DNA of 64,000 nt from an uncultured Dehalococcoidaceae bacterium (GTDB lineage: Bacteria > Chloroflexota > Dehalococcoidia > Dehalococcoidales > RBG-16-60-22), in NCBI GenBank assembly GCA_964638295.1, contig CAZWYS010000001.1:2144-66143 (forward strand). Reading direction: 5' to 3'. Shown one piece after another: positions 3,475 through 51,730 of this stretch; positions within the stretch are counted from its first letter, which is position 1; the number at the start of each line of letters is the position of its first letter. The notes beneath the pieces are model-generated. The model searched no databases. It saw only the letters and a program-made list of their open reading frames with translations, and was not told the origin of the DNA. Position numbers and translations under genes: made by a program.

Positions 3475-3506
3475 AGCTAACGCCAAACGAAGGAGCAAGG
3501 ATTCAG

Positions 3507-4472: not shown

Positions 4473-5099
4473 CTATTTCTTAATCTCTTTGGCAGCTTCT
4501 CCTTCCGGCTTCCTCAACACTTCATCCACGATGCCATATTTCACTGCCTGGTCAGGGTTCAAGTAGAAATCACGGTCAGTATCGTGGGTGATTTTATCCA
4601 GTGTCTGACCGGTGTGGCTGGCCAGTATATTGCGGATAATGTCCTGTAGGCGCATGATTTCACGGGCGGCAATCGCAATATCAGCCGCCTGCCCCTGGGC
4701 ACCACCGAAAGCCTGGTGCATATGTATGGTGGAGTTGGGCAAGGCATAGCGTTTACCTTTAGCGCCGGCACAGAGGAGCAGCGTACCCATGCTGGCAGCC
4801 AGTCCAACACAGATAGTGGACACATCACAGCGGATAAGCTGCATGGTATCATAGATGGCAAGCCCGGCACTGATAATGCCGCCGGGACAGTGAATGTAAA
4901 GGCTTATATCCTTGTCCGGGTCTTCCCGCTCCAGGTAGAGAAGCTGAGCGACAACAACATTGGCTTCCCGGTCGTCAATCGGCGTACCCAGCATGACGAT
5001 GCGCTCTCTCAATAACAGCGAGTATATATCGAAAGCCCGCTCTCCCCTGGCACCGCTTTCAATCACCATGGGAATAACATTGGTTGGGTTTACATTCAT
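4473..5099 (-). CDS. clpP: ATP-dependent Clp protease proteolytic subunit
   Basis: 208 aa. [21 protein letters not shown], catalytic GLAASMG and MHQ motifs. Confidence 0.95.
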
Positions 5100-6415
5100 T
5101 TTTGCGCCTCCTTTTTGGCTTTAGTATCAATTTTTGAGCCTCTGGCTATTTCTACGAGACGGTTTACCGTTTTGCGGGTCATTAAAATCTGCTTGATTGA
5201 TTCGCGGGACTGCGGATGACTCAAGGCTTTCCGCAGGTCTTCCTTATTCTCGGTGGCATTTTTCAGCACATCTTCAACCTCGGCGTCAATCTCAGGGTCG
5301 CCCACCTCAATCTTTTCTTCCCCGGCAACCTTGCCCAGGACCAGAGACCGGGTAACCCTGCCGGTTGCCAGCGGATGCAGTTCCTCATGTAATTGCTCTT
5401 CTGTCTTGTTGGCACTTTTCAAATAAGCTTCCAGATTTCCACCCTGCATCTGAAAGCGTCTTGACTGCTCGTCGAGAAGCCGGTGGACTTCCATCTCCAC
5501 CAGAACAGGAGGGAACTCAACCTGAGCCTGAGCGACCACGGCTTCAATTGCCTTTTCCTCAAAATCCATCCTAGCTTTCTCATCAGCCCTGAGCTTCAAG
5601 TTATCGGTGATTTTCTTTTTGAGTTTGGCTACTGTTTCCACCTCAGGGTCAAGCTGCCTGGCAAATTCATCATTCAGTTCAGGCAGTATCTCCTGTTTTA
5701 TTTCGCCGACTTTCACCTTGAAGGAAGGCTCTTTTCCAGCCACCTCGGTTCTGGGGTGGTCGGGGGGAAACTGGAGCTTGAACTCCTTTTCCTCGCCCTT
5801 CTTCATCTCGTGTAGCTGTCCGGCGAAACCCGGCGCCGGGATGGGCGAGTCACGAAATACCTGGTACTGGACTCCCTTTTGATTGATAAAAGGCTTGCCG
5901 TCAATAGTGCTTTCAATATCCAGAACCACCAGGTCGCCGAAATCAACAGCACGGTCCACAGCCTCCCAGGTGGCATTCTGGTGGCGCAATTGCTCTATTA
6001 CCCCGTTAACATCGTCCTTGCCTACTTTCACCGGTTCCGGGGTGACCCGAACCTTGCGATAGTCGCCGAGCTTAACCGACGGGGCCAGCGGCACCGTTGC
6101 CTTAAATATTACCGGGTCAGTCTGGACTACCTCAATCTGCGGTCGAGCGATAGCCTCAATTTGTTCATCCTTTATCGCCTTTTCAAAAGCCTGGGGCAAC
6201 AGATGATTGAGGGCATCGTCGAGGAAACTTTCCTTACCGAGATACCGTTCCAGTATCGGCCGCGGCGCCTTTCCCTTGCGAAAGCCGGGGATATTTGCTT
6301 TCTTGACCAGGCGACGATAAGACTCGGCCAGGGACTTCTCCACTTCAGCCGGTTCCATCTCAATGGTCAAAAATGCCTGGCTATTTTCGGTCTTTTCTCT
6401 AGTTACTTTCACCAA
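5096..6415 (-). CDS. tig: trigger factor
   Basis: 439 aa. N-terminal ribosome-binding GFRKGKAP motif and a central FKBP-like region. Located directly upstream of clpP, the classic arrangement. Confidence 0.95.
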
Positions 6416-9324: not shown

Positions 9325-10302
9325 TTATAAGGTGGACTTTACCGCCTCAATAATCTGCTCTTCCTGAGGAAACACCGCCTTCTCAAGGTAACGGTTTACC
9401 GGGATAATTATATCAGGGGTGGCTACCCGCTTGATGGGAGCGTCCAGATGGTCAAAGGCGCGTTCCTGAACCTGGGCAACGATTTCCGCCCCAACGCCAC
9501 ACCTCTTCATAGCCTGGTGCGCCACCACCAGCCTTCCGGTTTTCTTCACCGAGGCAACAATTGTCTCAATATCAAGCGGATGAAGACTGCGCGGGTCAAC
9601 TATCTCCACCTCAATTCCTTCTTCGGCCAGAGTCTGAGCCGCGTTCAGCGCCTTGAACGCGAGTGTGCCCCAAGCCACAATGGTGGCGTCTTTTCCCTCT
9701 CTCTTTACATCGGCTTTGCCGAGGGGCACCACATAGTCTTCCACCGGCACCGCACCACTCAAGCTGAGCAGGGTTACCGGCTCAATAAATATGACCGGGT
9801 TAGGGTCTCTGATGGCGGCTTTAAGCAGTCCCTTGCCATCATAAGGGCTGGACGGCATAACCACCTTCAAGCCGGGCACGTGGACAACCCAAGACTCAAA
9901 GCTCTGTGAGTGCTGGGCACCGAGGCCCATTCCGCCTTCAGCGTTAGTCTTGATGACCATGGCTACCTCAGGTCTGCCCGCCGATAGATAGCGCATCTTG
10001 GCAACGTGGTTGACGATTTCATCCATGCAAATCGCCATCCAGTCGATACGCATAATTTCAACGATGGGACGCATGCCAACCAAGGCGGAACCCAGTCCAA
10101 AGCCAACAATGGCGGTCTCAGATATGGGCGTGTCTTTAATTCTTTCTTCGTCAAACTCAGCGAGCAATCCCCGAGTAGTACCGAAAGCACCGCCAAAGGC
10201 ACCTATATCCTCCCCCATCAGGAAAACCCTCTCGTCACGTACCATTTCTTCTTTTATCGCTTCGCTAATAGCCTCGCGATAGGTTAGCTGACGTTGAGCC
10301 AC
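9325..10302 (-). CDS. 2-oxoacid dehydrogenase E1 component, beta subunit
   Basis: The ORF track gives 9325..10326. I prefer GTG at 10302: AGGAGG lies 8 nt upstream and it sits 1 nt after the alpha-subunit stop. This gives VAQRQLTYREAI.., colinear with the paralog at 50693. Confidence 0.9.
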   Translation of the reverse strand: MAQRQLTYREAISEAIKEEMVRDERVFLMGEDIGAFGGAFGTTRGLLAEFDEERIKDTPISETAIVGFGLGSALVGMRPIVEIMRIDWMAICMDEIVNHVAKMRYLSAGRPEVAMVIKTNAEGGMGLGAQHSQSFESWVVHVPGLKVVMPSSPYDGKGLLKAAIRDPNPVIFIEPVTLLSLSGAVPVEDYVVPLGKADVKREGKDATIVAWGTLAFKALNAAQTLAEEGIEVEIVDPRSLHPLDIETIVASVKKTGRLVVAHQAMKRCGVGAEIVAQVQERAFDHLDAPIKRVATPDIIIPVNRYLEKAVFPQEEQIIEAVKSTL

Positions 10303-10303
10303 T

Positions 10304-11296
10304 TTATCTGCCTCCTTCCTGGGCATAGATGCCCTTAAAAGCTACTTCCGGAGCCGGTTCGGGGCTTTTTATGGCGAAATCAACCGCTTCATCAAGCTCC
10401 TTCCGGGACTCTTTTTCAATTTTTTCAGCCAGCTCGTCAGTCATGTGGCCCATCCCGGTCAGTTGCTTTTGGAAAATTTTAATCGGGTCACGTTTCTCCC
10501 ACCACTCCTCTACCTCACCCTTCGGTCGGTATGTAGGGCCGCTAACCGAAGCCACACGCAGGCTATGCTCCGGTGACAGGCGATAGGTAACACACTCAAT
10601 TAAACTGGGGCCCTCACCTTTTCTAGCCCTGTCGGCGGCGCTTTTGACGGTTTCATAGACAGCCATAATATCAGTGCCGTCCACCTTTAACCCGGGTATA
10701 TCGTAGGCAACGGCTCTAGCCGAAATGTCAACGTTGGCGCATCCTCTGCGTAGCGGCATTGACATGGCATATTGATTATTGGTGCAGAGGAACACAGTAG
10801 GCACCTTCCACAGCGCCGCCAGGTTCAGTCCCTCGTGAAAGGTACCGCGGGTGCTGGCACCGTCCCCGAAAAAGTCGAGACAGACCTGATTGGTCTTCCG
10901 CATCTTGATACCCAAGCCAACACCACCGGCAATAGTTATGCCACCGCCGACGATAGCACTGGTACCGAGAAAATTGTGGTCAAAGTCGGAAACGTGCATT
11001 GAGCCACCTTTGCCTTCGTTGCAGCCGGTAGCCTTACCGAAGACTTCAGCCAGCACAACGGGCATACTTGCCCCCCTAGCAAGTATGTGTCCATGGGCAC
11101 GGTGGGTAGACATGATATAATCGTCTTTGTCCAAAGCACTACAGGCACCAACGGCTACCGCTTCTTCGCCCATGGAAGCATGCCCGGTGCCGACAATGTA
11201 GCCTTCCTCAAAGTAATGGGGGAGACTCATTTCAAAAAGTCTTATTCTTACCATCCGCCGGTACATGCTTAAGAGTTGTTCTTTAGTTAACTGCAT
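10304..11296 (-). CDS. 2-oxoacid dehydrogenase E1 component, alpha subunit (TPP-dependent)
   Basis: TPP-binding region FFGDGASTRGTFHEGLNLAA..NNQYAMS. ATG at 11296 has GGAGG 6 nt upstream (ORF-track start is GTG 11302). Confidence 0.9.
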   Translation of the reverse strand: MQLTKEQLLSMYRRMVRIRLFEMSLPHYFEEGYIVGTGHASMGEEAVAVGACSALDKDDYIMSTHRAHGHILARGASMPVVLAEVFGKATGCNEGKGGSMHVSDFDHNFLGTSAIVGGGITIAGGVGLGIKMRKTNQVCLDFFGDGASTRGTFHEGLNLAALWKVPTVFLCTNNQYAMSMPLRRGCANVDISARAVAYDIPGLKVDGTDIMAVYETVKSAADRARKGEGPSLIECVTYRLSPEHSLRVASVSGPTYRPKGEVEEWWEKRDPIKIFQKQLTGMGHMTDELAEKIEKESRKELDEAVDFAIKSPEPAPEVAFKGIYAQEGGR

Positions 11297-11537
11297 CTTC
11301 ACCTCCCTTTATTTAAAATCCAACTACCGGGAAGAGTTCAACATGATTAACAACCACACACTGACGAAGCTCCTCTGGAAAGATACCATAATTCATTTGA
11401 CCCGTCAAAATGGCATGGATGACGTAGCTCACTCATAACACGTAGAGTTTGCGTTAGTGTCTCCCAAATACTATGATAGGGTTTAGCGAGCTAAAGCTTT
11501 GGGCAACGGCTGGCCCTAGGCAGAGAGTTGCAATCTA

Positions 11538-13170: not shown

Positions 13171-13677
13171 TTACCCCAGCTGAGCCCGCAGTTTATGTAA
13201 AAGCTCCTGCTCAATTTCAGCATGCGCTTCAAGCAGTTTTCTGGTGTGGCTGATATGGGCTCGCATATCGTGAGCGCTTGCTTCCCACAGGTGACGGGAT
13301 AAGCCACCGGTAATCAACTCGGCGATATGTTCTTTGGAATGAGCCAGGCGATTTCTCAGGTCTTCATGCTCAAGGAGCAGAGAGCGCAGGGCTGATACCA
13401 GCTCTTTGCTGCCATGTTTTTCAAAAGCGGCCACGAGTCCGGTTTCCTCACGGTCAAAGTGCGCCTGAAGTCCTTTATCTATTGTCTCCAGCATCTCCTG
13501 CAACTTTCGCAGACCCCCTCCCTGCCCGAGCCTCCCTGGCATAAAAGCATCTTTGGCTTTTTCCAAACCCGCTATTGCTTCGGCATCATTGGCGGCCTGC
13601 TCCAGATTCTGAGCCCCCTGTTTAATAATTTTATGTTCTTCAATAATCTTTTCAATCAAAGCCAGCGCTTCTTCCAT
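13171..13677 (-). CDS. hemerythrin-like (HHE cation-binding) domain protein
   Basis: Repeated H....E / HF..EE patterns (EEHK, AHFDREE, LEHEDL, EAHAEIE). ATG at 13677 has AGGAGG 7 nt upstream (ORF-track start is 13713). Confidence 0.5.
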   Translation of the reverse strand: MEEALALIEKIIEEHKIIKQGAQNLEQAANDAEAIAGLEKAKDAFMPGRLGQGGGLRKLQEMLETIDKGLQAHFDREETGLVAAFEKHGSKELVSALRSLLLEHEDLRNRLAHSKEHIAELITGGLSRHLWEASAHDMRAHISHTRKLLEAHAEIEQELLHKLRAQLG

Positions 13678-13787
13678 CGGTTTACCTCCTAAATCGACAC
13701 CACGCTTTACCATCCCGCTTATTTGAGTAGAAAAAGTATAACATATAAGCAGAAGGACAGGCTATTTATCCTTATGGCTAAATATAT

Positions 13788-14249
13788 CTAAGAGACCAAC
13801 CCGCGCATACGATACAGCACTACTCCAGTTCCACCAAGCGCGATCCCAGTGATAACCATAAAGACACCGCTGGCAGCAACCGACTGGGTAAGCCCAAAGG
13901 CAACGACGGCCAGATAAAGGTAGTTCTCCAGATTCAGGGCCTGGGCATAGGTCAATTGTTCTGGATTTGCCGGATTATACCGTTCCCCGCCCAGTAAATC
14001 GCTGTATGTTGGAGCTATTCCCCGGCGGTGCTCTCTAATCGTGTCGCCGGCTTTCTGCGCTTCGGTTAAAGAATCAATAATCTCACCTTCCAGTTCCGAC
14101 TCAATGCCAAGGGTCACGTTTTCAATGCGCATTACCTCTTTTAGCTGATTATCCCTGGCAACACCCAAGCCAACGAAGACACCGCCCATGACTATCGCCA
14201 CCAAACCGGCAAACATTACCATCAATGCCAAATTACGTGTTAGTTTCAT
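13788..14249 (-). CDS. membrane protein, two predicted TM helices, unknown function
   Basis: 153 aa. Hydrophobic N- and C-terminal segments flank a polar domain. Confidence 0.5.
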   Translation of the reverse strand: MKLTRNLALMVMFAGLVAIVMGGVFVGLGVARDNQLKEVMRIENVTLGIESELEGEIIDSLTEAQKAGDTIREHRRGIAPTYSDLLGGERYNPANPEQLTYAQALNLENYLYLAVVAFGLTQSVAASGVFMVITGIALGGTGVVLYRMRGLVS

Positions 14250-14433
14250 TTCCTTACCTCCTTTCCTGCGGTAATTAAATTAATTTTAGGTCATAGTATA
14301 ACGCCTGTATGTGAGATATATCACATACTAGTTATTAGAGCTACTATATGCTAATATCTAATGCACCAAAAATAAGAGAGCTTTTGACGAGAACCCCGAA
14401 GATACAAGCAGCGAAAATAGAGGAGTCCAGCAA

Positions 14434-15342
14434 ATCATAGGCAGACTATTCAGAAACCGTAATTTCATACTCATCCTATCCATGGTGCTGGGGCTGGCTA
14501 TCGGCGAGCGGGTAGCCGTCCGGACAGAGCCGTTGATACTGCCAGCGCTGGCACTGATTATGACGTTATCCGCCACCAACATAACTTCCCGTGATTTCGC
14601 CTCTCTTAAAGCCATGCCGCGCGCGATACTCATTTCATTACTGATGAACTACGTGGTGATGGGGGGCATAATTTTACTGATGGCGTGGTGGCTGATAGAT
14701 GACAGCGAGTTATGGACAGGGTTTGTGGTGCTGGCGGCGGTGCCTCCCGCAGTAGCGGTGGTGCCTTTCAGCTACGTGCTGGGGGGGAACACGCTCTTTT
14801 CCCTGATGGGCATGACGGGGGCTTACCTGGCGGCGCTGGCAATCATGCCGGCGGCGATGGCGTTGTTCCTCGGGATTGATTTCTTTGACCCGGCTAAATT
14901 GCTCTTAATTCTCGGAGAGTTAATCGTCGTTCCCGTGGTCCTTTCCCGGATATTGCTTTTCACCAAGCTAGCCCAGCGTATAGACAGGTGGCGGGGCACG
15001 ATTGTCAACTGGAGCTTTTTCGTAGCTCTGTTCACCATCGTCGGGCTGAACCGGCAGGCTTTCTTCGGTGAGTTTGACGTCCTGATAAGACTGGTCATAA
15101 TTGCGGTGGTCATTTCCTTTGGTCTGGGCTATGCTATCGAACTAATCACCAAGGCGCTGCGGGTAAATCCAGCGACCAGCATCAGCCTGTCGCTCATGGG
15201 GACGCTGAAAAACTACGGTCTGGCGAGTGGCATCCTGCTTACCCTTTTCAGCGAGAGGGCGGCAATTCCGGCATCTGTCTGCACCGTTTTCGGCATTTTG
15301 CGGATGGTGTGGCTGGGGTTTCGCATCAAGAAGGCAGCGTAA
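14434..15342 (+). CDS. bile acid:sodium symporter-like (BASS/AEC-type) membrane transporter
   Basis: Polytopic membrane protein. The first canonical start (ATG 14482) falls inside the first TM helix. The frame is open from 14362, and GAGGAG (14420-14425) lies 8 nt before in-frame ATC 14434 / ATA 14437. Confidence 0.6.
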   Translation: MIGRLFRNRNFILILSMVLGLAIGERVAVRTEPLILPALALIMTLSATNITSRDFASLKAMPRAILISLLMNYVVMGGIILLMAWWLIDDSELWTGFVVLAAVPPAVAVVPFSYVLGGNTLFSLMGMTGAYLAALAIMPAAMALFLGIDFFDPAKLLLILGELIVVPVVLSRILLFTKLAQRIDRWRGTIVNWSFFVALFTIVGLNRQAFFGEFDVLIRLVIIAVVISFGLGYAIELITKALRVNPATSISLSLMGTLKNYGLASGILLTLFSERAAIPASVCTVFGILRMVWLGFRIKKAA

Positions 15343-15371
15343 GTCTGCCCGAAAGCCTCTTTACCAGCAGG

Positions 15372-16286
15372 CTATTTTTCCAATCGCTGCAGATAGCGGT
15401 GGGCTTGAAGCGCCGCTTTGGCACCTTCACCGGCGGCAACAATAATCTGCTTCTCCGGCACATCAGTCACATCGCCGGCGGCATAAAGTCCGGGCATGGT
15501 GGTCTCACAATCACAGCTAATGGGCACCTCTCCCCACTTGTTAAGCTCAATAAGCCCTTTTACGGCATCGGAATTGGGCACCAGTCCGATTTCAATGAAA
15601 ACGCCGGTAACATCCAGAACTTTTTCCTCGCCACTCTTGAGGCTTTTTACCAGTACTCCCGCTACCAAATCTTTGCCTTTAATTTCCAGCGTCTGGTATT
15701 CGGTAAGAATGGTAAGGTCTCGGGCACCGGAGAGCCGGTCAATAAGAACGGGGTCGCCGGTCAGGGGGGTCAGTGAGACCAGGTAAACATGCTCCGCAAT
15801 TTTTATCATGTCCAAAGCCGCCTCAAGCGCCGAGTTGCCACCTCCCACCACCATTACCCTCTGCCCGGCAAAAACAGGACCGTCACAGATGGCGCAGTAC
15901 GTAACGCCCCTCCCGGTAAACTCTTCCTCCCCCGGCACGTTCAACTTTTTAGGCTTTTTCCCGGTGGCAAAGATTACCGCCCTGGCCCGATATTGAGCGC
16001 CAGCTTCAGTTATGGCTTCAAAGCCATCCCTAATCTTCCTCAGCCGGGTTACTTTATCGCCAATTTTCTGGTCAACAGGAAACTGGCCCACCTGAGTCTG
16101 GAATTTATCAATCAGCTCCGGACCTTCAATGAGTTGATAGCCCAGGTAGTTCTCAATATTTATCGTCCAGTTAATCTGACCACCAATGTCAACGGTAACC
16201 AGCAAAGTTTTGAGCTGCTTACGAGCCGCATAGACACTGGCAGCAAGCCCGGCGGGACCGCCACCGACTATCATTAAATCGTACAA
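15372..16286 (-). CDS. trxB: thioredoxin-disulfide reductase family flavoprotein
   Basis: 304 aa, TTG start with AGGAGG upstream. GGGPAG FAD motif, redox CAICDG, second GGGNSA NAD(P)H motif. Confidence 0.85.
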   Translation of the reverse strand: MYDLMIVGGGPAGLAASVYAARKQLKTLLVTVDIGGQINWTINIENYLGYQLIEGPELIDKFQTQVGQFPVDQKIGDKVTRLRKIRDGFEAITEAGAQYRARAVIFATGKKPKKLNVPGEEEFTGRGVTYCAICDGPVFAGQRVMVVGGGNSALEAALDMIKIAEHVYLVSLTPLTGDPVLIDRLSGARDLTILTEYQTLEIKGKDLVAGVLVKSLKSGEEKVLDVTGVFIEIGLVPNSDAVKGLIELNKWGEVPISCDCETTMPGLYAAGDVTDVPEKQIIVAAGEGAKAALQAHRYLQRLEK

Positions 16287-16340
16287 GGCTGCCTCCTAAC
16301 CCAACCCAGTAAGTCGTTCAGCCCCCATATCTACCCGCTA

Positions 16341-16580
16341 TCACGATGCGAGCAGGCTGTCCAACCTGGTCTGGTTAAACCCGATGACAATTTCACCATC
16401 AACAGTGATTACCGGAACGCCCATCTGCTTTGATTTCTGTATCATCTCCCTGGCTTTCTCTCTATCAGTCGCCACGTTGTGCTCAGTATACTTGACACCT
16501 TTGCGCGAAAGATACTCTTTCGCCCGATGACAATAGGGTCAGGTGGGAGTAGTGTAGATAACCACTTTCTTATCCGCCAT
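16341..16580 (-). CDS. glutaredoxin/NrdH-like redoxin with in-frame UGA (putative selenocysteine) in a U-P-Y-C active site
   Basis: My own translation: MADKKVVIYTTPT[TGA]PYCHRAKEYLSRKGVKYTEHNVATDREKAREMIQKSKQMGVPVITVDGEIVIGFNQTRLDSLLAS. The TGA at 16541-16539 replaces the first Cys of CPYC. GAGGT SD precedes the ATG. A hairpin follows the UGA. Confidence 0.65.
16505..16523 (-). promoter_or_regulatory. candidate bacterial SECIS hairpin
   Basis: mRNA GCGAAAG-AGUAU-CUUUCGC: 7-bp stem, 5-nt loop containing GU, beginning 15 nt after the in-frame UGA. Confidence 0.45.
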
Positions 16581-16615
16581 TGCTTACCTCGCTTTATAGA
16601 ATAGCCGTAGAAGTG

Positions 16616-16762
16616 TTAATCTTCCAGGTGAATATGCTCACCCACGACAGGATTGCCACACACCGGGCAACTGGCTACCAGCATTGTCTGGCAGTTCGGG
16701 CATCGACCGGGTGTCTCTGATTCATAGCCACATTCTGGACATACATATTTAACATCCTGCAT
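16616..16762 (-). CDS. small zinc-ribbon protein (48 aa, three CxxC pairs)
   Basis: My own translation: MQDVKYVCPECGYESETPGRCPNCQTMLVASCPVCGNPVVGEHIHLED. GGGGGTGG SD upstream. First gene of the Grx-trxB operon. Too short for the ORF track. Confidence 0.5.
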   Translation of the reverse strand: MQDVKYVCPECGYESETPGRCPNCQTMLVASCPVCGNPVVGEHIHLED

Positions 16763-16774
16763 AAGACCACCCCC

Positions 16775-16795
16775 AATATTTAGTAGCTAAATATT
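16775..16795. promoter_or_regulatory. perfect 9-3-9 palindrome AATATTTAG-tag-CTAAATATT (candidate operator or 5'-UTR hairpin)
   Basis: Read directly. Lies 13 nt upstream of the zinc-ribbon ATG, in the divergent region between the redox operon and the ferritin/suf operon. Confidence 0.3.
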
Positions 16796-16986
16796 ACGTT
16801 CGGAAGAAAAGGATGTCAAATTTCTCATTCCGGGTAAGCTTTCCGATTATTATTTCAGAAAGATTTATTATATCATATATAAGATAGCATAGATTATGGT
16901 CAAAATATGGCATGCGACCAAAGTCACATACAGGGGCAAATTCGCGAGGTAAATTTGGATAGAGTTAGTCCAAATTCAACCAAGTA

Positions 16987-17015
16987 TTGACAAGGGCAAA
17001 AGTTAGGGCTATTAT
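16987..17015 (+). promoter_or_regulatory. sigma-70-type promoter candidate for the rubrerythrin/suf operon
   Basis: TTGACA (16987-16992), 17-nt spacer, TATTAT (17010-17015), 33 nt before ATG 17048. An 8-bp inverted repeat AATTTGGA-N9-TCCAAATT (16952-16976) lies just upstream. Confidence 0.45.
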
Positions 17016-17047
17016 CGGTTACACTCTCATACAGGAGGGAAGCAGCG

Positions 17048-17578
17048 ATGGCAACGGAACAGGATAAAACTCTGGAAGGACTTCAGGCGGCTATCCAAAT
17101 GGAGATTGACGGCAAGGAATTTTATTTAAAAGCGAGCCAGCAAAGCAGCAACGAAGCCGGTAAGAAGCTGCTGGAGTCTCTGGCTAACGAAGAAGACGTT
17201 CACCGGCAGAAATTTGAGGAAATATACGAGGCTATTAAGAATAAAAAAACCTGGCCCAGGTTAGATTTCCAGCCGGACATGGGCAGGGGGCTACGGACAC
17301 TATTTGCCCGGGAGACGGAGAGGCTGGGGGGCACGGTAAAGGCTCCGGCAACCGAGCTTGAGGCGGCCAAAACAGCGACAGATATGGAAAGCAAGACATA
17401 TGATTTTTATAAAGCCCAAAGTAAAGATGCTGTCTATGAAGCCGAGAAAGATTTCTACGAGGCTTTAGCTGCCCAAGAGAGGGAACACCAACTGATTCTG
17501 CTTGATTACCAGGAATATCTCAAAGACCCGGCAGCATGGTTCGTCAGTAAAGAACATCCCTCTCTGGACGGGGGCTAA
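17048..17578 (+). CDS. rubrerythrin/ferritin-like diiron four-helix-bundle protein
   Basis: 176 aa. Paired E...EEDVH and E...EREH ligand motifs. Confidence 0.75.
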   Translation: MATEQDKTLEGLQAAIQMEIDGKEFYLKASQQSSNEAGKKLLESLANEEDVHRQKFEEIYEAIKNKKTWPRLDFQPDMGRGLRTLFARETERLGGTVKAPATELEAAKTATDMESKTYDFYKAQSKDAVYEAEKDFYEALAAQEREHQLILLDYQEYLKDPAAWFVSKEHPSLDGG

Positions 17579-17600
17579 GAAAGAGGTGGGAGGTGTAAAC

Positions 17601-18353
17601 ATGCTGGAAATCAAGCAACTAACCGTGGCGGTAGGGGGGAAAGAGATACTGCATGATGTGAATTTGACCATAAAGACCGGCGAAACGCATGTCCTTTTCG
17701 GGCCTAACGGCGGCGGCAAAACAACCCTGCTGATGGCGATAATGGGCTTTCCGAAGTACAAAATAACCAAGGGCAGTATCTTTTTCAAGGGTAAGGACGT
17801 AACCAGATTGTCGCTGGATAAACGTGCCCGGCTGGGGATAGGCATGTCTTTTCAACGCCCTCCGGTTGTCCGAGGAGTGAAGACCAAAGATATGGTTGCC
17901 GCCTGTCTAAAGAGTAGAAAAAATGAGGAGAAAATAAGGCAGCTCGCTGAAGAGGCTGACCTGGCGGATTTCATGGAGAGAGAGATAAACTACGGGTTCT
18001 CCGGGGGGGAAATAAAGCGGGCTGAGCTAATGCAACTCCTGGCGCAGAAGCCGGAGCTGGTCCTGCTAGACGAGCCAGAGTCCGGAGTTGACCTGGTGAA
18101 TATAGCCCTGATTGGCGGGCTTATAAACCATCTGCTGGAGAAAGATTGCCCGATACTTTATCGCAAATGCATGGGGCTTATCATTACCCACACCGGGCAC
18201 AACCTGGATTATGTTAATGCCCGCACCGGCTATGTCATGTGCGATGGCATGATAGGCTGCGAGGGTGACCCCCACGAGATTTTGAAAACAGTTAAAGAAA
18301 AGGGCTATGACGAGTGCATCAGATGTCTGGTAAGGAGAAAACCGAATGCGTGA
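17601..18353 (+). CDS. sufC: SufC-like Fe-S cluster assembly ATPase
   Basis: Walker A GPNGGGKT, signature FSGGEIKR, Walker B LVLLDEPESGVD, H-loop ITHTGH. ATG 17601 is preceded by GAGGTGGGAGG. The ORF-track start 17502 overlaps the upstream gene. Confidence 0.85.
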   Translation: MLEIKQLTVAVGGKEILHDVNLTIKTGETHVLFGPNGGGKTTLLMAIMGFPKYKITKGSIFFKGKDVTRLSLDKRARLGIGMSFQRPPVVRGVKTKDMVAACLKSRKNEEKIRQLAEEADLADFMEREINYGFSGGEIKRAELMQLLAQKPELVLLDEPESGVDLVNIALIGGLINHLLEKDCPILYRKCMGLIITHTGHNLDYVNARTGYVMCDGMIGCEGDPHEILKTVKEKGYDECIRCLVRRKPNA

Positions 18354-19581
18354 GGTAAAAACTTCCAAAACCTATAAAGATAGAGCTAAAACGGCAGCCA
18401 GTAAACCAGCTGCCCTAGGTGAGGATGTAGATTTAAGCACCTATGCCAAGTCAGCCGAAGAGCAACCGTACCAAGATGACCCATCGCAACTTCCCGCTAA
18501 AACCAAAGCGCAGATGCTGGGGGCGGGAGTAATTCTGGATGACGTCAGCCAGAGGTCGGGAACTTTTATCCAGATGGATAACACCCCGATTCACAGTTCA
18601 ATCAGGCAGGACGGCATAGAAGTAATGGCCATCGGTCAGGCGCTGGAAAAATATGACTGGATGCCAGATTACTGGTGGCAGGCGGTGGCGGTGGATACTG
18701 ATAAATATACCGCCAACGTAGAGTTGAGCCAATACAGCGGCTACTTCATCAGAGCACTGCCGGGACAAAAGACGCTCCTCCCGGTACAAGCCTGCCTTTA
18801 TCTCTCAAAAGCGCGACTAGCCCAGAACGTACATAATATAATTATTGCCGAGGAAGGTTCAGAACTGCATATTATCACCGGCTGCGCCACGGCTTCCAAA
18901 GAAGAGCCGGGACTGCATATGGGAGTTTCTGAATTCTATATAAAAAGAGGAGCTAAAGTTACCTTCACCATGATACACAGCTGGAATCCTGAGGTAGCCG
19001 TCCGTCCCCGCACCGCTGCCATCGTGGAGGAGAACGGCTTGTTTTTGAGCAACTATGTGCTGATGAAGCCAGTCCGCTCGCTGCAAATGTATCCTGCCGC
19101 CAGGTGCATCGGCGAAAACGCAGTGGTCAGATACAACAGCATACTGGTGGCTGCCGAGGGCTCGTCACTGGACGTTGGTTCGCGGGCACTTCTCAATGCT
19201 AAAGGCGCCAAGACGGAAATTGTCTCACGCGCGATAACTACCGGAGGTAACATTACCGCCCGGGGCTACATAGAGGGCAATGCTCCCGAAGTGAAAGGAC
19301 ATCTTGAATGCCGGGGGTTAATCCTGCAAGGAAAAGGGACCATCCACGCCATCCCCGAACTTAGAGGCACTCTAGCCGGCATTGACCTATCGCATGAAGC
19401 GGCAGTCGGTAAAATTGCCGAGGAAGAAGTGGAATATCTGATGGCACGAGGACTGACCAGAGATGAAGCCACCGCTACCATCGTCAGGGGATTTCTGAGA
19501 GTAGATATTGAAGGACTCCCATCACTGCTCAGCACTGAACTGCAGCGGGCGGTGGAAGCCAGCGAAAAGGACGTGATGTAA
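18346..19581 (+). CDS. SufB/SufD-family Fe-S cluster scaffold protein
   Basis: 411 aa. Beta-helix region IIAEEGSELHIITGCAT..VSEFYIKRGAKVTFTMIHSW. Overlaps the sufC stop by 8 nt. Confidence 0.8.
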   Translation: MREVKTSKTYKDRAKTAASKPAALGEDVDLSTYAKSAEEQPYQDDPSQLPAKTKAQMLGAGVILDDVSQRSGTFIQMDNTPIHSSIRQDGIEVMAIGQALEKYDWMPDYWWQAVAVDTDKYTANVELSQYSGYFIRALPGQKTLLPVQACLYLSKARLAQNVHNIIIAEEGSELHIITGCATASKEEPGLHMGVSEFYIKRGAKVTFTMIHSWNPEVAVRPRTAAIVEENGLFLSNYVLMKPVRSLQMYPAARCIGENAVVRYNSILVAAEGSSLDVGSRALLNAKGAKTEIVSRAITTGGNITARGYIEGNAPEVKGHLECRGLILQGKGTIHAIPELRGTLAGIDLSHEAAVGKIAEEEVEYLMARGLTRDEATATIVRGFLRVDIEGLPSLLSTELQRAVEASEKDVM

Positions 19582-19616
19582 AGCACTTTAGCCAATAATA
19601 ATTCAGGAGGTGAAAA

Positions 19617-20459
19617 ATGGACACAGAGAAAACCATTACTTTGCTCAACAAAGACCTGCAGGATGAACATGGAGCCATTATCCAGTATCTGAACCATGCC
19701 TACGGCATGGGGGAAGGTGAGATGTCCTGCGAGATTGAGGCAGCCGCCCGGGATGAAATGCGACACCTTGACTGGCTGGCAGAGACCATAGTTGAGCTTG
19801 GCGGCACTCCCAGCCTGGAGAGAGGCACCATGCGCATGGGCGGTACGTCAGTAACCGACTGGATGAAAAACGATGTGCTATTAGAGGAAGGTGCCATAAG
19901 TCAGTATAAGGAGCACATCAAGCTTGTTGACGACCCGAAGATAAAACGACTGCTGCAGCGCATTCTTTCTGACGAGGAAGCGCATCTCGGCGATTTCGTG
20001 CACTTTGTCGAGAAGGCACAGAAAGAAGGCGCCAAAGATATAAGGGGCAGTCGTCAGGATAAGACCACACAGACACTTAACTGGGGCATTGAGCATGAGT
20101 ATACGGTCATCCTGCAGTACATGTTACATTCCTACCTAGCACGGAATGAAGAGGCCAAAGAGCAACTGGCAGACCAGGCAATCAATGAGATGCAGCATCT
20201 AGGCTGGCTTGCCGAGGAGCTGGCTGGTAGCGGCGGCAACCCCAAAATAGAGCACAGCGAGGTTGACCAGTCAACCAAACCGGCTGACCGGCTGCGAGCC
20301 GACATCAGCATTGAGAAGAAAGTAGCCAATGCTTACGACAAAGCGGCCAAGGAAACCGAAGACACAGACCTGAAGAAGCTTCTGCTCCGCATCAGGGATA
20401 ACGAACTCTATCACATTGATGTTTTCAATGACCTCCTGAAGGAAGAAGAGGAGAAATAG
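19617..20459 (+). CDS. tandem (fused) double ferritin/bacterioferritin-like domain protein
   Basis: 280 aa. Two complete E..ExxH + E..ExxH sets: LQDEHGAIIQYL..DEMRHLDW..EEAHLGDF and IEHEYTVILQYM..NEMQHLGW..NELYHIDVF. Confidence 0.7.
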   Translation: MDTEKTITLLNKDLQDEHGAIIQYLNHAYGMGEGEMSCEIEAAARDEMRHLDWLAETIVELGGTPSLERGTMRMGGTSVTDWMKNDVLLEEGAISQYKEHIKLVDDPKIKRLLQRILSDEEAHLGDFVHFVEKAQKEGAKDIRGSRQDKTTQTLNWGIEHEYTVILQYMLHSYLARNEEAKEQLADQAINEMQHLGWLAEELAGSGGNPKIEHSEVDQSTKPADRLRADISIEKKVANAYDKAAKETEDTDLKKLLLRIRDNELYHIDVFNDLLKEEEEK

Positions 20460-20493
20460 GCAAACCTGGCAGGCATAAAAGTCAGGTTTTCAA

Positions 20494-20853
20494 ATGGGTA
20501 CTATGGCTGGTTTCGTTGCAGCAGGTAAGGTTGATGAATTGCCAGATGGCGCCATGAAAAAGGTCACGGCTCAGGGGTATGAAATCCTTCTGGCCAGGGC
20601 TGGAGCTAAATACTATGCGGCCGACAATCGTTGTCCTCACCTGGGAGCAGATTTATCGCAGGGCAAACTGGAAGGAACTGTAGTTACCTGCCCCCGGCAC
20701 GGCTCCCAGTTTGACCTGACTGACGGGCGAGTGATTCGCTGGACCAACTGGTCAGGGCTGGTTTCAAAGCTGGGCAGAGTACTCAAACCACCCCGGCAAC
20801 TCACCGTTTATAAGACCAAGGTTGAAGCTGGCAGAGTCCTGATAGAAATCTAG
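20494..20853 (+). CDS. Rieske [2Fe-2S] domain protein
   Basis: 119 aa. CPHLG ... CPRHGSQF ligand boxes. Confidence 0.85.
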   Translation: MGTMAGFVAAGKVDELPDGAMKKVTAQGYEILLARAGAKYYAADNRCPHLGADLSQGKLEGTVVTCPRHGSQFDLTDGRVIRWTNWSGLVSKLGRVLKPPRQLTVYKTKVEAGRVLIEI

Positions 20854-20938
20854 TCCCGGGCAGTATTGAACAATATGGAGCCTCTGGATTTCCAGCCGCC
20901 GTTGCTTGCCAATTTATTACCGCCAAGGAGGTTATACG

Positions 20939-21400
20939 ATGCCGGACGAATTAAACGAACTACTGGACAGTGCGATATACAAAGAAATTGTTTCGCAGGC
21001 AATTTACGAAGCAGCCCAAGAGAAGACCGAAGACCCGGGCGCCAAAGCGTTACTGAAAGAACTGGCCAAGGAAGAGCTCGGGCATTCCCAGAAGCTAAAG
21101 AAGCTCAAGGAGAAAGGTTTATCAACGCAAAACTGGCACGAAGAAAAAGTGCCAGACTTAAAGGTCAGTGACTATCTAACCGGCGGCGACACAGTAGAGG
21201 GCGCCGGTCTGCAGGAAACGCTTATTTTTGCCATGAAGCGCGAGCAACAAGCAATTGAATTTTACTCCAAAATGATAAGCCTAATGAGGGATGAGTCCGC
21301 CAAACGCCTCTGCGAGAGGCTGGTCAATGAGGAACTCAAGCATAAGCTGAGATTGGAAATACTCTACGACGATATGTTTTACAGAGGACCCCGATACTAG
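20939..21400 (+). CDS. rubrerythrin/ferritin-like diiron protein
   Basis: E..EELGH and E..EELKH motifs. ATG 20939 has AAGGAGG 7 nt upstream (ORF-track start is 20906). Confidence 0.7.
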   Translation: MPDELNELLDSAIYKEIVSQAIYEAAQEKTEDPGAKALLKELAKEELGHSQKLKKLKEKGLSTQNWHEEKVPDLKVSDYLTGGDTVEGAGLQETLIFAMKREQQAIEFYSKMISLMRDESAKRLCERLVNEELKHKLRLEILYDDMFYRGPRY

Positions 21401-21469
21401 ACGTGCGGTCAATTCCTTAACCGGAGATAAAAAGTTAACCAGCAGACGCAGAGGGAGGAGACGGGTTAA

Positions 21470-22744
21470 ATGTTCAATAAAGTAATCGCCATTGTACTGA
21501 TTTTTCTAGTTATTCTCAGCGGCGGCCTCGGCTACTATTCTTACACACTAAGCCAACAGATTAACTCTCTAAACGAGCAACTGATATATTTTCACGAGAG
21601 GCAAGCAGCACAAATTGATGTCTTGAGTGATAAGATTACCACCCTGAGCGGCGAGACCATGACCAGGATTAGCAACGTGGATAGCAAAGTAGTTAAAAAC
21701 CTGACCGAGATTGATAACCTGGGAAGCAAGATAGAGGGAAATTCAGTCAAAATTGACACCCTGGGTGATGATGTAAGCAGCACCCTAGTCAAAATAGACA
21801 GCCTAGAAAATGAGATAAAAGATGTGGCCGTAATTTCCCAATCAGTAATGGACGCCCAAAAAGTTTACCAGAGAGTTAGCCAGGCTACGGTTAGAATCAG
21901 CAATGGAGTTAGAACAATCGGTTCGGGGTTTATATACGATGAAGTCCACGTAGTAACCGCCCATCACGTCGTGGATGACCTCTCCGAGATATACATAGTC
22001 TTGCCTGATGGGAGAACTTCAGCGGCAGAGGTTATCGGTAGCTGTCCTTATAGCGACGTGGCTGTCCTTAAACCCGATGATGAACTAACTATCGAGCCAT
22101 TGAAACTGGCAGACTCTGCCGTTGTAAAAATCGGAGAGCCAGTGGCTACCATTGGCAACCCAATGGAGCTTACCGAAACAATGACGACCGGCATTGTCAG
22201 CCAAAGCGACAGATACGCCGAGATAAAGCACGATTCACGAACTCGCTGGGTAGCTAACTTAATCCAGTTTGACGCGGCGGTGAATTTTGGCAATTCCGGC
22301 TGTCCTTTAGTAAACGCGGAGAGCGAGGTTATCGGAATGGTCATTGCCCGGATTGACCCGGACGAGGGGGAGGGCATCTATTATGCTGTCTCCTCAAACA
22401 AAGTTAAGCGAGTGGCCGACTCGCTTATTGCGCAAGGCTCTTTTGACTATCCCTGGGTCGGGGTTAGTATAGCCAACCTGACTCCAGAAATGGTGCAAGA
22501 AAGAGAATTAGCTACCACCAATGGGATATCGGTTGAAGGGGTTCTGGCCGATAGCCCGGCCAAGATGGCTGGAATCAAAGTTGATGATATCATAACGGCT
22601 ATTGATGGCGTGGCGATTAGAGATGTTGCTACCTTTACCTCTTACCTGGGAGAATATAAAAGCCCGGGCGAAACAGCCACCGTTACCTTAATCAGAGATG
22701 CCGCCAAACTGGAGCTAGCTATAGAGATAGGCAAGCGACCATAG
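21470..22744 (+). CDS. membrane-anchored HtrA/DegP-type trypsin-like serine protease with C-terminal PDZ domain
   Basis: 424 aa. N-terminal TM and coiled coil, catalytic HVVTAHHVV, D, and GNSGCPL serine motif. PDZ-like GVLADSPAKMAGIKVDDIITAIDG. Confidence 0.85.
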   Translation: MFNKVIAIVLIFLVILSGGLGYYSYTLSQQINSLNEQLIYFHERQAAQIDVLSDKITTLSGETMTRISNVDSKVVKNLTEIDNLGSKIEGNSVKIDTLGDDVSSTLVKIDSLENEIKDVAVISQSVMDAQKVYQRVSQATVRISNGVRTIGSGFIYDEVHVVTAHHVVDDLSEIYIVLPDGRTSAAEVIGSCPYSDVAVLKPDDELTIEPLKLADSAVVKIGEPVATIGNPMELTETMTTGIVSQSDRYAEIKHDSRTRWVANLIQFDAAVNFGNSGCPLVNAESEVIGMVIARIDPDEGEGIYYAVSSNKVKRVADSLIAQGSFDYPWVGVSIANLTPEMVQERELATTNGISVEGVLADSPAKMAGIKVDDIITAIDGVAIRDVATFTSYLGEYKSPGETATVTLIRDAAKLELAIEIGKRP

Positions 22745-24161: not shown

Positions 24162-24596
24162 ATGCCGGCGGGGTTGGGAGGTAGTGACACCGTGACATCG
24201 GTGGTAAGAGGAAGACGTAATTCCCTTAGAGAACAAAGCGGCATAGGTCTTATGGAAACGCTGGTGGCGCTGGCGATTCTAGGCGTCATCACCGTTACCT
24301 TTCTTAGTGGCTTGAATACGGCTTCCAAAGCGGCCTTCACCGCCGATGAGCAGACCACCGCCGAAAGTCTGGCGCAAAGTCAGATGGAATGGGCCAAACG
24401 GGCTACCTATGTAGAAGAGGCCAGCCAATATTCCCCGGCATCAATTCCCGATGGTGGTGATTATGTCAATTACTCCGTGGCAATTACCGCTGAGCCTTTA
24501 CGTGACCCGGATGATGGTATCCAGAAGATAACCGTAACGGTTAGCCATGCTGATGGAACAGTAATTGAACTGGAGAACTACAAGAGACAGCGATGA
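24162..24596 (+). CDS. type IV pilin-like / pseudopilin protein (prepilin-type N-terminal motif)
   Basis: Q-S-G|IGLMETLVALAILGVITV: Gly at -1, Glu at +5, then a hydrophobic helix. The true start may be GTG 24192 or 24201. The stop overlaps the next start (ATGA). Confidence 0.7.
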   Translation: MPAGLGGSDTVTSVVRGRRNSLREQSGIGLMETLVALAILGVITVTFLSGLNTASKAAFTADEQTTAESLAQSQMEWAKRATYVEEASQYSPASIPDGGDYVNYSVAITAEPLRDPDDGIQKITVTVSHADGTVIELENYKRQR

Positions 24597-27500
24597 AGCA
24601 AAGGGAAAGAGGTTTTACCATTCTTGAGCTTTTGGCGGTTACAGCCATCATAGCTCTGGTAGCGAATGCGGCGCTGCTGACCACATTTCATGTGCTCAGG
24701 AACAGTGATCGCAATGCGAACCAGATGACCGCCACAAGTCAGGTGCAGAACGCCGGCTACTGGATTAGCCTTGATGCCCAGAAAGCCCAGAGCGTGGAAG
24801 CGGCGTCAGCCAACGAAACAGTCGTTACCGTCTCCTGGGACCACAGCGAAGGCGGCACTCTGGAACCAGACGACAAGCTCTACTTTTCCTTCTCGGACGA
24901 CAGCGGTAGCACCTGGAGCAGCAATTTTATCGCTTTCAGTGACGACATCGGCGCTACGCCAGAACCTTTCAGCTACGTTATCCCCAATAAATATCTGACC
25001 ACGGACTTCAAGATGCGGTTCTTCGTAGCCTTTGATGCGAGTGAACGCGCCTACATTGATAATATCACGGTCGCCAATGTCACCGAGGAACTATTTTGCG
25101 ATGACTGTGGCGATATGGACAACTGGGTTAACGGCGCCAACTGGTACCCTTACTATACCTCGGAATGGGGATGGGAATTTAGAGGCGATGGTGCCGGGGG
25201 AGGACTCTGGTATAACGAAGACTGGCAATGCCGGAGGGAGATAACCATTGACCACACCAAGGTTGAGGATGTCGCCAGCCCAGAGACCACCTACGCCGAC
25301 TTCCCGGTCCTGGTGTACGCCACCGGGCTTTCGGGGGCCAAAGCCGATGGCGCCGATATCCGCTTCACGGAATCGGACGGCATCACCGAGTTGCCGAGAG
25401 AAATAGAGAGCTATTCCAGCGGCACCCTGTATGCCTGGGTAAAGGTCAATTTAACCAAAGACAGCGGTGATTCTGAAGACGATGTCATCTATATGTATTA
25501 CGGCAACGACGCGGCTACCGAGCCAGACCTGGATTCCCCCTACGGCGCCCAGAATGTCTGGGAGACTAATTACAAGGGAGTCTGGCATTTGAGCGAAGAC
25601 CCATCAGGGACAGTCCCACCAGCCGACTGGTATGATGGAGAGTGGGAATGCCGGAGGGAGATAACCATTGACCACACCAAGGTTGAGGATGTCGCCGACC
25701 CAGAGGCTACCTACGACGAATTCCCGGTCCTGGTGTGCGCCACCGGGCTTTCGGGGGTCAAAGCCGATGGCGCCGATATCCGCTTCACGGAATCGGACGG
25801 CATCACCGAGCTGTCGAGAGAAATAGAGAGCTATGCCGACGGCACCCTGTATGCCTGGGTAAAGGTCACTCTAACCAAAGACAGCAGTGATTCTGAAGAC
25901 GATTTATTTTACATGTACTACAGCAACGACGCGGCTACCGAGCCAGCCCCGGATTCCACCTACGGCGCCCAGAATGTCTGGGAGGCTAATTACAAGGGAG
26001 TCTGGCATTTGAGCGAAGACCCTACCGGCCCGCATGGCTGGTATAACCAGGACTGGCAGTACTGCAAGAAGATAACCATTGACCATGACAAAGTTGAAGC
26101 TGATTTGACTGATTTCCCGGTCTTGGTTTCCATTACCGATAGCGATTTAAGAGACCAGGCTAAATCTGACGGTTCTGATATCGTATTTACTTCTTCTGAC
26201 GGCACTACGAAATTAAAAAGAGAAATAGAAAGCTATGATGATTCAACCGGAACCCTAGTTGCCTGGGTTAAGACAGGTTTATCAGGCAGTTCTGACACGG
26301 AGCTCTACATTTATTACGGAAATTCCGGAGCTTCAGAGACAAATGATACCGATACCTGGGATACCAGCTTCAAGGGAGTCTGGCATTTACAAGAGACAAC
26401 CGGCGGTGCCAACGCCATAGAAGATTCAACATCCAACAGCAACCATGGAACCGACCAAGGAAGCCCTACTCTCGGAGCAACTGGAAAGGTTGACGGGAGC
26501 GTAGGTTTCGATGGGACTAACGACTTCATTGATGCGGGGGACCCTGCCAGCGGAAGCCTGGATTTCGGAACAGGCGCATTCACTGCATCTGCATGGATAA
26601 AAACAACGGCCACAACAGGAACGGGCGGTTCCAGAGATGATATTATTGCAAAAGGTGACCCTACATCTAGTGGTTATGCCATGAACTCACAAAATAATAA
26701 GGCAACATTCATGGTCGGAAACAATCTTGAACTTGCAGGAACAACAAGCATAAACAATGGAGCCTGGCATTACATTGTTGGAACAAGGCTTGCAGGCGGC
26801 ACAGTCTATGTCTATGTTGATGGCGTGAGTGAGAATACTGGGTCTAATACAGAAAGTGTATCTACAGCAACCAACTTCATTTTTGGAAAGCACGGCACAA
26901 AGAGCGAATCTTATTTCCCCGGCACCATAGACGAGGTCCGCGTCTCCAACACCGCAAGAAGTGCGGAATGGATTAAGACTTCTCACAATAATCAGAATGC
27001 CCCTTCTAATTTCTATAGCCTGGGAACCGAGCAGACGACAGCCGCGGAAGAAGGGATAAAAGACAGCACGTCAAATAATAATGACGGCGCCACTGGTGGC
27101 GCGATGACTTCTGGTGACCAGGTAGCGGGGCAAATTAACGGTTCCCTGGATTTTGACGGCACCGATGACTACATAAATATCCCCCGGGACAGTACCCTTG
27201 AGCCCACCACTGCGGTCACGGCCAGCACCTGGTTCTACTGGCATGACAATAATGCCAGTTACTATGGAAAAATCCTAGCCAAAACCACTAGCTCGGACAC
27301 AGCTCCCTGGATTTCCTATGTTCTTGAGCAGAATGCCGGCAACCAGCAAATCGTGGCCGCTATTAACGTCAATGGTACCGGGCATTCCACATCGGCTCAG
27401 TCTTTAACCGAAAACGAATGGCATCACCTGGTGCTGACCTGGAGTTCCGGGGACAATATCCGTTTCTACATTGACGGAACACAGGCAACAAGCACCAGTT

Positions 27501-29356: not shown

Positions 29357-29389
29357 CCGTCATTAAAGTTGTCAAGCGGGTAAGAGCTA

Positions 29390-44876: not shown

Positions 44877-45060
44877 CTAAGTATTCCTAAAATAGCCACA
44901 AGGTAGAGGAATGCTTCCTGTCTCCATCTTAATTGTTATACCAGAGTCACTTGAAAGCAGCGTCAGAATAAGAAGCATTGACAAATTGGGAAAACTTTAT
45001 ATACTTGGAAATAGTTACCAAGCAGCAACGAAGCAGGAATTAAAGGAGGGGCTTGAGCCG

Positions 45061-50678: not shown

Positions 50679-50692
50679 GTAAGGGGGTTAGA

Positions 50693-51670: not shown

Positions 51671-51730
51671 GCGCGCTTGTCCGCATTAGCGACAAAAGCA
51701 AAGCGAGATAAGACCGCTGGAGGTACTGAT

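Follow-up and report, generated by a model that had tools for sequence, protein, structure and literature searches.

Selenocysteine (Sec)-containing glutaredoxins (Grx) are experimentally established proteins, and PMC13188914 includes Grx (PF00462, UxxC) in its list of prokaryotic selenoprotein families with experimental verification. Grx1 of Clostridium oremlandii, whose motif is U/C-P-x-C, is natively a selenoprotein according to PMC7642778 and is the proposed reductant of Sec-MsrA; it is described (Kim et al. 2011, cited in PMC13188914 and PMC7642778) as re-reduced by glutathione. In Clostridium pasteurianum, as PMC3720550 recounts from Reynolds, Meyer and Poole 2002, the Cp34/Cp9/Cp20 system runs from an NADH-dependent thioredoxin reductase (TrxR)-like protein through the Grx-like Cp9 to a peroxiredoxin. 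The DNA analysed here, called the window, is a stretch of 64,000 nt from an uncultured Dehalococcoidaceae bacterium (assembly GCA_964638295.1, contig CAZWYS010000001.1, positions 2,144 to 66,143). Its minus strand carries a selenoprotein gene of an already catalogued family that standard gene calling misses, a short Grx-like redoxin gene with an in-frame UGA. We put the probability that this locus genuinely encodes a Sec protein in its lineage at roughly 92%, and the residual doubt lies in the Sec machinery of this genome. The elements of the gene, including the predicted selenocysteine insertion sequence (SECIS), are:

16341..16580, minus strand: predicted coding sequence of a Sec-containing glutaredoxin-like (Cp9/YruB-type) redoxin of 79 residues, by translation, Pfam, NCBIfam and codon-position divergence
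16539..16541, minus strand: in-frame UGA, codon 14, predicted to be read as Sec, first residue of the U-P-Y-C redox motif
16586..16590, minus strand: Shine-Dalgarno-like GAGGT, 5 nt upstream of the redoxin ATG, read from the sequence
16505..16523, minus strand: predicted SECIS hairpin GCGAAAGA-GUA-UCUUUCGC, with arms at 16523-16516 and 16512-16505 and the loop at 16515-16513, 15 nt past the UGA

The gene had been proposed in a first-pass annotation, which noted that the interval 16287-16615 held no open reading frame (ORF), and standard ORF calling indeed returned nothing there beyond fragments of ≤48 aa. Translation confirmed the proposed 79-codon frame, with ATG (16580-16578), 12 codons, TGA (16541-16539), 65 codons and a final TGA-TAG. 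The product reads MADKKVVIYTTPT, the stop, PYCHRAKEYLSRKGVKYTEHNVATDREKAREMIQKSKQMGVPVITVDGEIVIGFNQTRLDSLLAS and the terminator; the TGA at codon 14 is the only internal stop and falls on the first cysteine (Cys) of the expected CPYC motif. The residues after the UGA begin PYCHRAKEYLSRKG, and the C-terminus is LDSLLAS. The GAGGT reported ahead of the ATG was found at 16590-16586, and the terminator TGA (16343-16341) abuts a TAG (16338-16340), forming a tandem stop. All details of the first-pass observation proved correct.

For profile searches of the redoxin, Cys was put in place of Sec at the TGA. Pfam Glutaredoxin (PF00462) was matched at E=6.5e-22 with 77.9 bits against a gathering score of 22.9 over model positions 1-60 of 60, and this match places U/C-P-Y-C, residues 14-17, at the start of helix 1. 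The model TIGR02196 GlrX_YruB, whose name points to C. pasteurianum YruB, was passed with 97.3 bits (cut-off 88.55, model positions 1-73 of 74), as was the subfamily model NF041212, 'Uxx-star family glutaredoxin-like (seleno)protein', with 72.6 bits against 66. The same NCBI name is carried by a Dehalococcoidales orthologue (P0040) that is 78% identical. With this curated (seleno)protein cut-off passed, and with homology to a native selenoprotein glutaredoxin of solved structure, the earlier remark that Sec-containing redoxins are a known class holds for this gene.

Several other assignments were tried and rejected. The protein does not qualify as an NrdH-redoxin, as TIGR02194 gave 42.2 bits against a cut-off of 85.75 and the active-site motif departs from C-[VMI]-Q-C; NrdH-redoxins are also small Grx-fold proteins, reduced by thioredoxin reductase, and NrdH structures were matched at E=3e-8. 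No nrdIEF or other ribonucleotide-reductase genes were found among the scanned ORFs of the 64-kb window. The redoxin also fell below the cut-offs of the Grx3 and mycoredoxin models. It passes the NF041212 subfamily but fails UXX-star families 1-3 (NF041114, 50.8 vs 72 bits; NF041211, 44 vs 100; NF047338, 38.6 vs 97), and it has one Sec, not two. A second, C-terminal Sec of the UXX-star type, where we take 'star' to mean the stop codon, was rejected, as the terminators were TAA or TAG in 29/34 Sec loci with no conserved terminal TGA. As a separate observation, these TAA/TAG ends in most Sec-type orthologues and the tandem stop of the window would fit a tendency to avoid UGA as an ambiguous terminator where UGA also encodes Sec.

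The closest solved structure was PDB 7C10, C. oremlandii Grx1 (E=1.4e-18, residues 4-77 aligned). Like the window redoxin, the Grx1 of C. oremlandii (Alkaliphilus) OhILAs (7C10/7C12/7C13) has about 80 residues, the Grx fold and an N-terminal U-P-x-C motif, which is UPHC there and UPYC in the window, and the identity is about 45% by reading of the alignment. The two differ in their partners, glutathione being the described reductant of Grx1, whereas an adjacent TrxR/AhpF-like flavoprotein is the conserved partner of the window redoxin. With Cp9-type redoxins, the window redoxin shares a C-P-[YW]-C-type motif and an N-terminal [IV]-x-[ILV]-[YF]-[ST] motif (VVIYTT in the window), and in both systems the Grx-like redoxin is encoded beside a TrxR-like flavoprotein. 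In contrast to the Cp9 system, the window redoxin has Sec for the first Cys, the gene order differs, and the operon is without a peroxiredoxin gene, having a zinc-ribbon gene upstream and a divergent rubrerythrin gene.

To compare the catalytic codon across relatives, the GTDB species representatives and JGI metagenomes were scanned at the DNA level, which gave 160 loci, the closest being from Dehalococcoidales/Dehalococcoidia metagenome-assembled genomes (MAGs). The codon aligned to window codon 14 was TGA in 35 distinct loci (window included) and TGT or TGC in 83, so that the UGA stands opposite Cys, where the first-pass annotation had placed it. The other 34 TGA loci were mostly from Dehalococcoidales MAGs and from sediment or groundwater metagenomes. 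In a neighbour-joining tree, which was built without the Sec codon and the hairpin codons and is short and noisy, the Sec forms are scattered among the Cys forms, and parsimony requires at least 13 switches between the two states among 64 close loci. This distribution shows the redoxin family as a labile Sec/Cys pair.

In the protein database, 820 relatives of the redoxin were found, the best 120 being 73-83% identical. Among these best 120 of 820, the catalytic residue is Cys in 87 and tryptophan (Trp) in 30-33, depending on the pattern used, the Trp forms (TWPYC) including P0005, P0006 and P0008. This Trp count is what would speak for an alternative genetic code, with TGA read genome-wide as Trp or glycine (Gly). 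However, the Trp entries are mostly on short contigs, up to about 2 kb long, and one of them (P0067) is identical to the translation of a TGA locus (L083) with TGA read as Trp. This identity makes it very probable that the Trp entries stem from TGA codons read with the wrong code, which on short metagenome contigs would most probably be genetic code 4. Furthermore, TGA ends 9/45 Pfam-supported genes of the window and the Sec-Grx gene too, so TGA is not generally reassigned; the long ORFs of the window are intact under table 11, and Trp or Gly at the CxxC nucleophile would inactivate the fold. An alternative code is refuted by this stop-codon usage and is given practically no weight. The expectation that gene callers would miss the locus was also borne out, as TGA forms appear in the database only as Trp products, and no protein database record matched the truncated 44-aa product of the window with its stop at the UGA.

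The 19-nt hairpin, GCGAAAGAGUAUCUUUCGC, also encodes A-K-E-Y-L-S-(R). The structure first drawn 15 nt after the UGA, a 7-bp stem with an AGUAU loop, is equivalent to the ViennaRNA fold of an 8-bp stem with a GUA triloop, in which a further A-U pair closes, and the 15-nt spacing between UGA and stem is within the accepted range of bacterial SECIS elements. The 66-nt fold had an energy of -19.2 kcal/mol and z=-2.3, with 2/200 shuffles folding equally well; this single-sequence statistic is weak, and the comparative data carry the case. The hairpin was observed in 35/35 TGA loci at the same 15-nt spacing, with 8/8 pairs in 27 loci, 7/8 in 7 and 6/8 in 1. At least 7/8 pairs were formed in 34/35 Sec loci vs 4/30 close Cys loci (those at least 60% identical to the window), giving a Fisher p of 6.7e-13, and in 8/83 Cys loci overall. 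Across the Sec loci, 96.7% of stem cells were paired vs 33-63% when the partner columns were slid. Stem variants that leave the structure intact were AAA/AAG (A-U or G-U, 9 loci), CTT to TTT (G-U) and AAA to AGA (G-U). Among Cys loci with the identical AKEYLS peptide, the hairpin was lost by synonymous changes in 3/6, for example in L001, where GCG AAG GAA TAT CTT TCC leaves the peptide as it is and the hairpin is gone.

A perfect 8-bp hairpin was present in only 2/83 Cys loci (L092, with its Grx codon 14 at 450, and L102), which have TGT yet keep the full hairpin with Sec-type synonymous codons and look like recent Sec-to-Cys conversions. These counts bear directly on a sequencing or assembly error, by which the true codon would be TGT or TGC in an ordinary Cys-type gene. 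Such an error would take one base, and Cys forms are common among the close relatives. However, the window has the full Sec-type signature GCG-AAA-GAG-TAT-CTT-TCG-C, a perfect hairpin being found in 27/35 Sec loci vs 2/83 Cys loci, and the error would need to strike, by chance, a gene already equipped with a SECIS, which makes this explanation highly improbable.

Divergence was calculated as the pairwise mean per codon position and region. In the Sec loci, the values for codon positions 1/2/3 were 0.26/0.14/0.58 upstream of the UGA (codons 2-13) and 0.20/0.13/0.53 downstream of it (codons 27-70). Since positions 1 and 2 diverge far less than position 3 on both sides, the peptides before and after the UGA are, by this measure, under purifying selection in one frame, indicating that ribosomes read through the UGA. 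The third-position divergence by region was:

codons 2-13: 0.58 in Sec loci, 0.55 in close Cys loci
codons 15-19: 0.56 in Sec loci, 0.52 in close Cys loci
codons 20-25 (hairpin): 0.084 in Sec loci, 0.61 (0.612) in close Cys loci
codons 27-70: 0.53 in Sec loci, 0.54 in close Cys loci

Within the hairpin, the Sec loci (n=35) used GCG at codon 20 in 33/33, GAG at codon 22 in 34/34, TAT at codon 23 in 34/34, CTT at codon 24 in 33/33 and TCG at codon 25 in 33/35. The synonymous entropy was accordingly 0 bits for GCG, GAG, TAT and CTT and 0.37 bits for TCG, compared with 0.99-2.06 bits for matching residues in the close Cys loci (Ala 1.91, Tyr 0.99, Leu 2.06, Ser 1.61), and neighbouring four-fold sites of the Sec loci were near saturation (Arg19 1.83 bits, Gly28 1.96 bits). 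This pattern points to selection on the hairpin RNA specifically where the UGA is present. The SECIS reading made at first pass is in this way upheld, the hairpin being in all TGA loci and mostly absent from Cys loci, with synonymous sites frozen only in Sec forms.

The same data bear on an ordinary pseudogene, in which a nonsense mutation would have struck a Cys-type gene and the hairpin would be coincidental. The codon is a stop under the standard code, and the z-score of the single-sequence fold is only -2.3, as such a view would have it. However, TGA recurs at this codon in 34 further loci, which are divergent at over half of their third positions, purifying selection is seen on both sides of the stop, and the hairpin tracks the stop. 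The pseudogene explanation is effectively refuted by these comparative data.

Several observations stand against Sec encoding. Classical covariation in the stem is weak, since the sole double change seen was in L132 (GCG to GTG with TCG to TCA, a C-G to U-A change) and the shuffle control was barely exceeded; little covariation arises because the hairpin is so conserved, and the RNA argument therefore rests on the synonymous-site constraint and the contrast between Sec and Cys loci. Rfam gave no SECIS-like family at the locus (E≤10), and at the gathering threshold the window holds two tRNAs only; we know of no general Rfam model for bacterial SECIS elements. A scan of about 55 window ORFs detected no SelA, SelB or SelD domains, and ARAGORN found no tRNA-Sec in the window, where the only tRNAs are tRNA-Val and tRNA-Glu, nor in 49 related loci. 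No convincing further gene with an in-frame TGA was found in the window among 131 candidates with open frames on both sides, nearly all of which overlap real genes in other frames by their coordinates. The scanned window ORFs gave no match to a peroxiredoxin (AhpC/Prx) gene, and no MsrA gene was found in the window; neither gene is in the operon. Finally, in the one related locus with Sec genes nearby (L008), the Grx gene is of the Cys form despite selA and selD.

That locus comes from a Dehalococcoidales MAG, one of the GTDB species representatives, and its selA and selD lie within about 3-4 kb of the Grx gene. They are divergent, with selD at 3368-4420 (minus) and selA at 4528-5907 (plus), beside a CopA-type P-type ATPase gene, and score 356 bits (selD, TIGR00476) and 546.5 bits (selA, TIGR00474, cut-off 267.9). 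The locus was the sole match of a tblastn probe, an E. coli SelD sequence, and was then confirmed by NCBIfam; its SelA and SelD, used as queries against all fetched loci, gave no further copies. The N-terminal region of selD contains an in-frame TGA, between VRGAG and ASKIG, where the E. coli enzyme has its active-site Cys, and because of this position the SelD of L008 is predicted to be itself a selenoprotein, a second one in that lineage. In the literature, BSepDB (PMC13326102) has entries for two Dehalococcoidia MAGs, one with 49 selenoproteins and one with 46, and Sec-containing dehydrogenases are reported for Dehalococcoidia (PMC4959059, PMC5736913). Together with L008, these reports support Sec use in Dehalococcoidia and give indirect support for the window gene.

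The absence of Sec machinery from the window would also be expected of a relic, a former Sec gene in an organism that has since lost Sec decoding, with translation stopping at codon 14, and the frequent Sec/Cys switching in the family marks the trait as labile. However, the start, the Shine-Dalgarno site, the full-length frame and a perfect consensus hairpin are all intact with no decay seen, and the window copy is 75-83% identical to many intact orthologues. A relic is therefore considered very unlikely.

The redoxin gene is the middle one of three minus-strand genes, between a zinc-ribbon ORF (16762-16616) and a TrxR-like gene (16286-15372), an order that is kept in relatives. Its neighbours are:

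16616..16762, minus strand: zinc-ribbon / rubredoxin-like ORF of 48 aa with CPEC, CPNC and CPVC, first gene of the operon
15372..16286, minus strand: AhpF-C-terminal-like / low-Mr thioredoxin-reductase-like flavoprotein of 304 aa, with a TTG start and a CAIC redox motif

The operon had been described at first pass as zinc-ribbon ORF, redoxin gene and trxB. The order was confirmed and is conserved, while the 'trxB' assignment needs qualifying, as the flavoprotein resembles canonical TrxB less closely than it does the AhpF C-terminal module. It matched Pfam Pyr_redox_2 at E=5.8e-38, TIGR03140 AhpF over positions 213-512 with 328 bits and TIGR01292 with 296 bits, both under the cut-off, and its best PDB match was 1fl2, the AhpF catalytic core (261 bits). 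It contains the motifs GGGNSA and CAIC and, by eye, is without an HRR motif, and its TTG start is preceded by AGGAGG at 16297-16292. Compared with AhpF, residues 213-512 are matched best and the N-terminal double thioredoxin-fold domain is absent; the flavoprotein is below both the AhpF and TrxB equivalog cut-offs and has no adjacent AhpC gene.

The TrxR-like gene lies about 50 nt 3' of the redoxin gene in the window and directly 3' of it in most close loci, whether of the Sec or Cys type, and the adjacency was also observed in distant lineages (Armatimonadota, Omnitrophota and a nanoarchaeal MAG). Because the reductase gene is conserved directly downstream of the redoxin gene, the two very probably form a dedicated reductase-redoxin pair, in which the free redoxin would replace the AhpF N-terminal domain. 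The zinc-ribbon ORF gave weak Pfam zinc-ribbon matches. About 20 loci have a counterpart of it, 58-79% identical, ahead of the Grx gene, and in many loci a rubrerythrin gene runs divergently from the operon.

A mechanism can be proposed by taking the translation steps, including the dependence on SelB, from the standard bacterial mechanism. With the ribosome at UGA codon 14, the 19-nt hairpin, with its 8-bp stem and GU-containing apical loop, would tether SelB-GTP-Sec-tRNA(Sec). Sec would be inserted, and translation would proceed through the hairpin, which doubles as coding sequence for AKEYLSR. The product would be a 79-residue Cp9/YruB-type redoxin with the active site U14-P-Y-C17, predicted to cycle between the selenol/thiol and selenenylsulfide states. 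The adjacent AhpF-like flavoprotein (CAIC, no AhpF N-terminal domain) would re-reduce the redoxin with NAD(P)H, and the redoxin may hand electrons to peroxide- or oxidant-repair enzymes as putative acceptors. This electron flow would be akin to that of C. pasteurianum Cp34/Cp9, which feeds a peroxiredoxin, or of C. oremlandii Sec-Grx1, which reduces MsrA.

The gene leaves what is known about selenoproteins unchanged, as Sec-glutaredoxins are experimentally established and the NCBI curated (seleno)protein model already matches. It adds one more Sec/Cys-polymorphic redoxin for Dehalococcoidales, a class that already has selenoprotein-rich members. It is also a clean example of a SECIS inside a coding sequence, with a 19-nt stretch of frozen synonymous sites only alongside the UGA. 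For annotation, standard callers leave either a gap or a Trp product, and this Trp artefact affects about one quarter of the closest database entries.

The operon lies within a cluster of genes related to oxygen, iron and reactive oxygen species (13171-22744), which contains:

13171-13713: hemerythrin-like gene
17048-17578 and 20906-21400: two rubrerythrins
17502-19581: SufC and SufB/D
19617-20459: double ferritin-like protein
20494-20853: Rieske protein
21470-22744: HtrA protease

This gene content points to a likely role of the neighbourhood in oxidant defence in an anaerobe. We tentatively suggest, while regarding it as doubtful, that the Sec-redoxin and the AhpF-like reductase lacking the N-terminal domain may form a selenium-dependent module of a Dehalococcoidales oxidant-defence island (rubredoxin-like zinc-ribbon, rubrerythrin, hemerythrin-like, ferritin-like and SUF genes), and that the unusually frequent Sec/Cys switching might track local selenium or oxygen. 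If true, the costs and benefits of Sec vs Cys could be studied with this gene as a natural marker and test-bed.

Upstream of the operon, a promoter candidate was identified by consensus match only:

16791..16819, minus strand: candidate sigma-70-like promoter, TTGACA-17-TAATAT, ahead of the zinc-ribbon gene

A perfect 9+9 palindrome, AATATTTAG-TAG-CTAAATATT (16775-16795), overlaps the -10 hexamer of this candidate. It occurs once in the window, where 0.04 copies are expected, and is not clearly conserved in relatives, a half-similar site being observed at the equivalent place only in L002. The palindrome could be a putative operator for a redox or metal regulator.

Elsewhere in the window, a second UxaA-like (altronate/galactarate dehydratase) pair has a large subunit whose frame is open from at least 56560 (region 56553-56725). 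The N-terminus of this subunit aligns with that of its paralogue (MEFLGY vs I-SFLGY), and no ATG, GTG or TTG is present there. An AGGAGG (56553-56558) is followed after 7 nt by an ATA (56566-56568) that shares bases with the TAA ending the SAF-domain ORF upstream, which suggests that this subunit may use the rare start codon ATA.

Two adjacent ORFs of 1587 and 1423 aa (24593-33661) with repeated Laminin_G_3 (concanavalin-like) and DUF2341 domains are probably cell-surface proteins, and an IS110-family transposase gene (DEDD_Tnp_IS110 and Transposase_20) was found at 40852-42018 between TRAP-transporter genes and a DUF169 gene. Several gene sets are present in duplicate, including 2-oxoacid dehydrogenase E1 alpha/beta (9325-11302 and 49692-52939), Ldh_2-family dehydrogenases (35937-37046 and 62265-63371), NHL-repeat proteins (34811-35752 and 57855-58916) and SAF and UxaA-like dehydratase pairs (44911-46556 and 56261-57723), which suggests paralogous catabolic modules.

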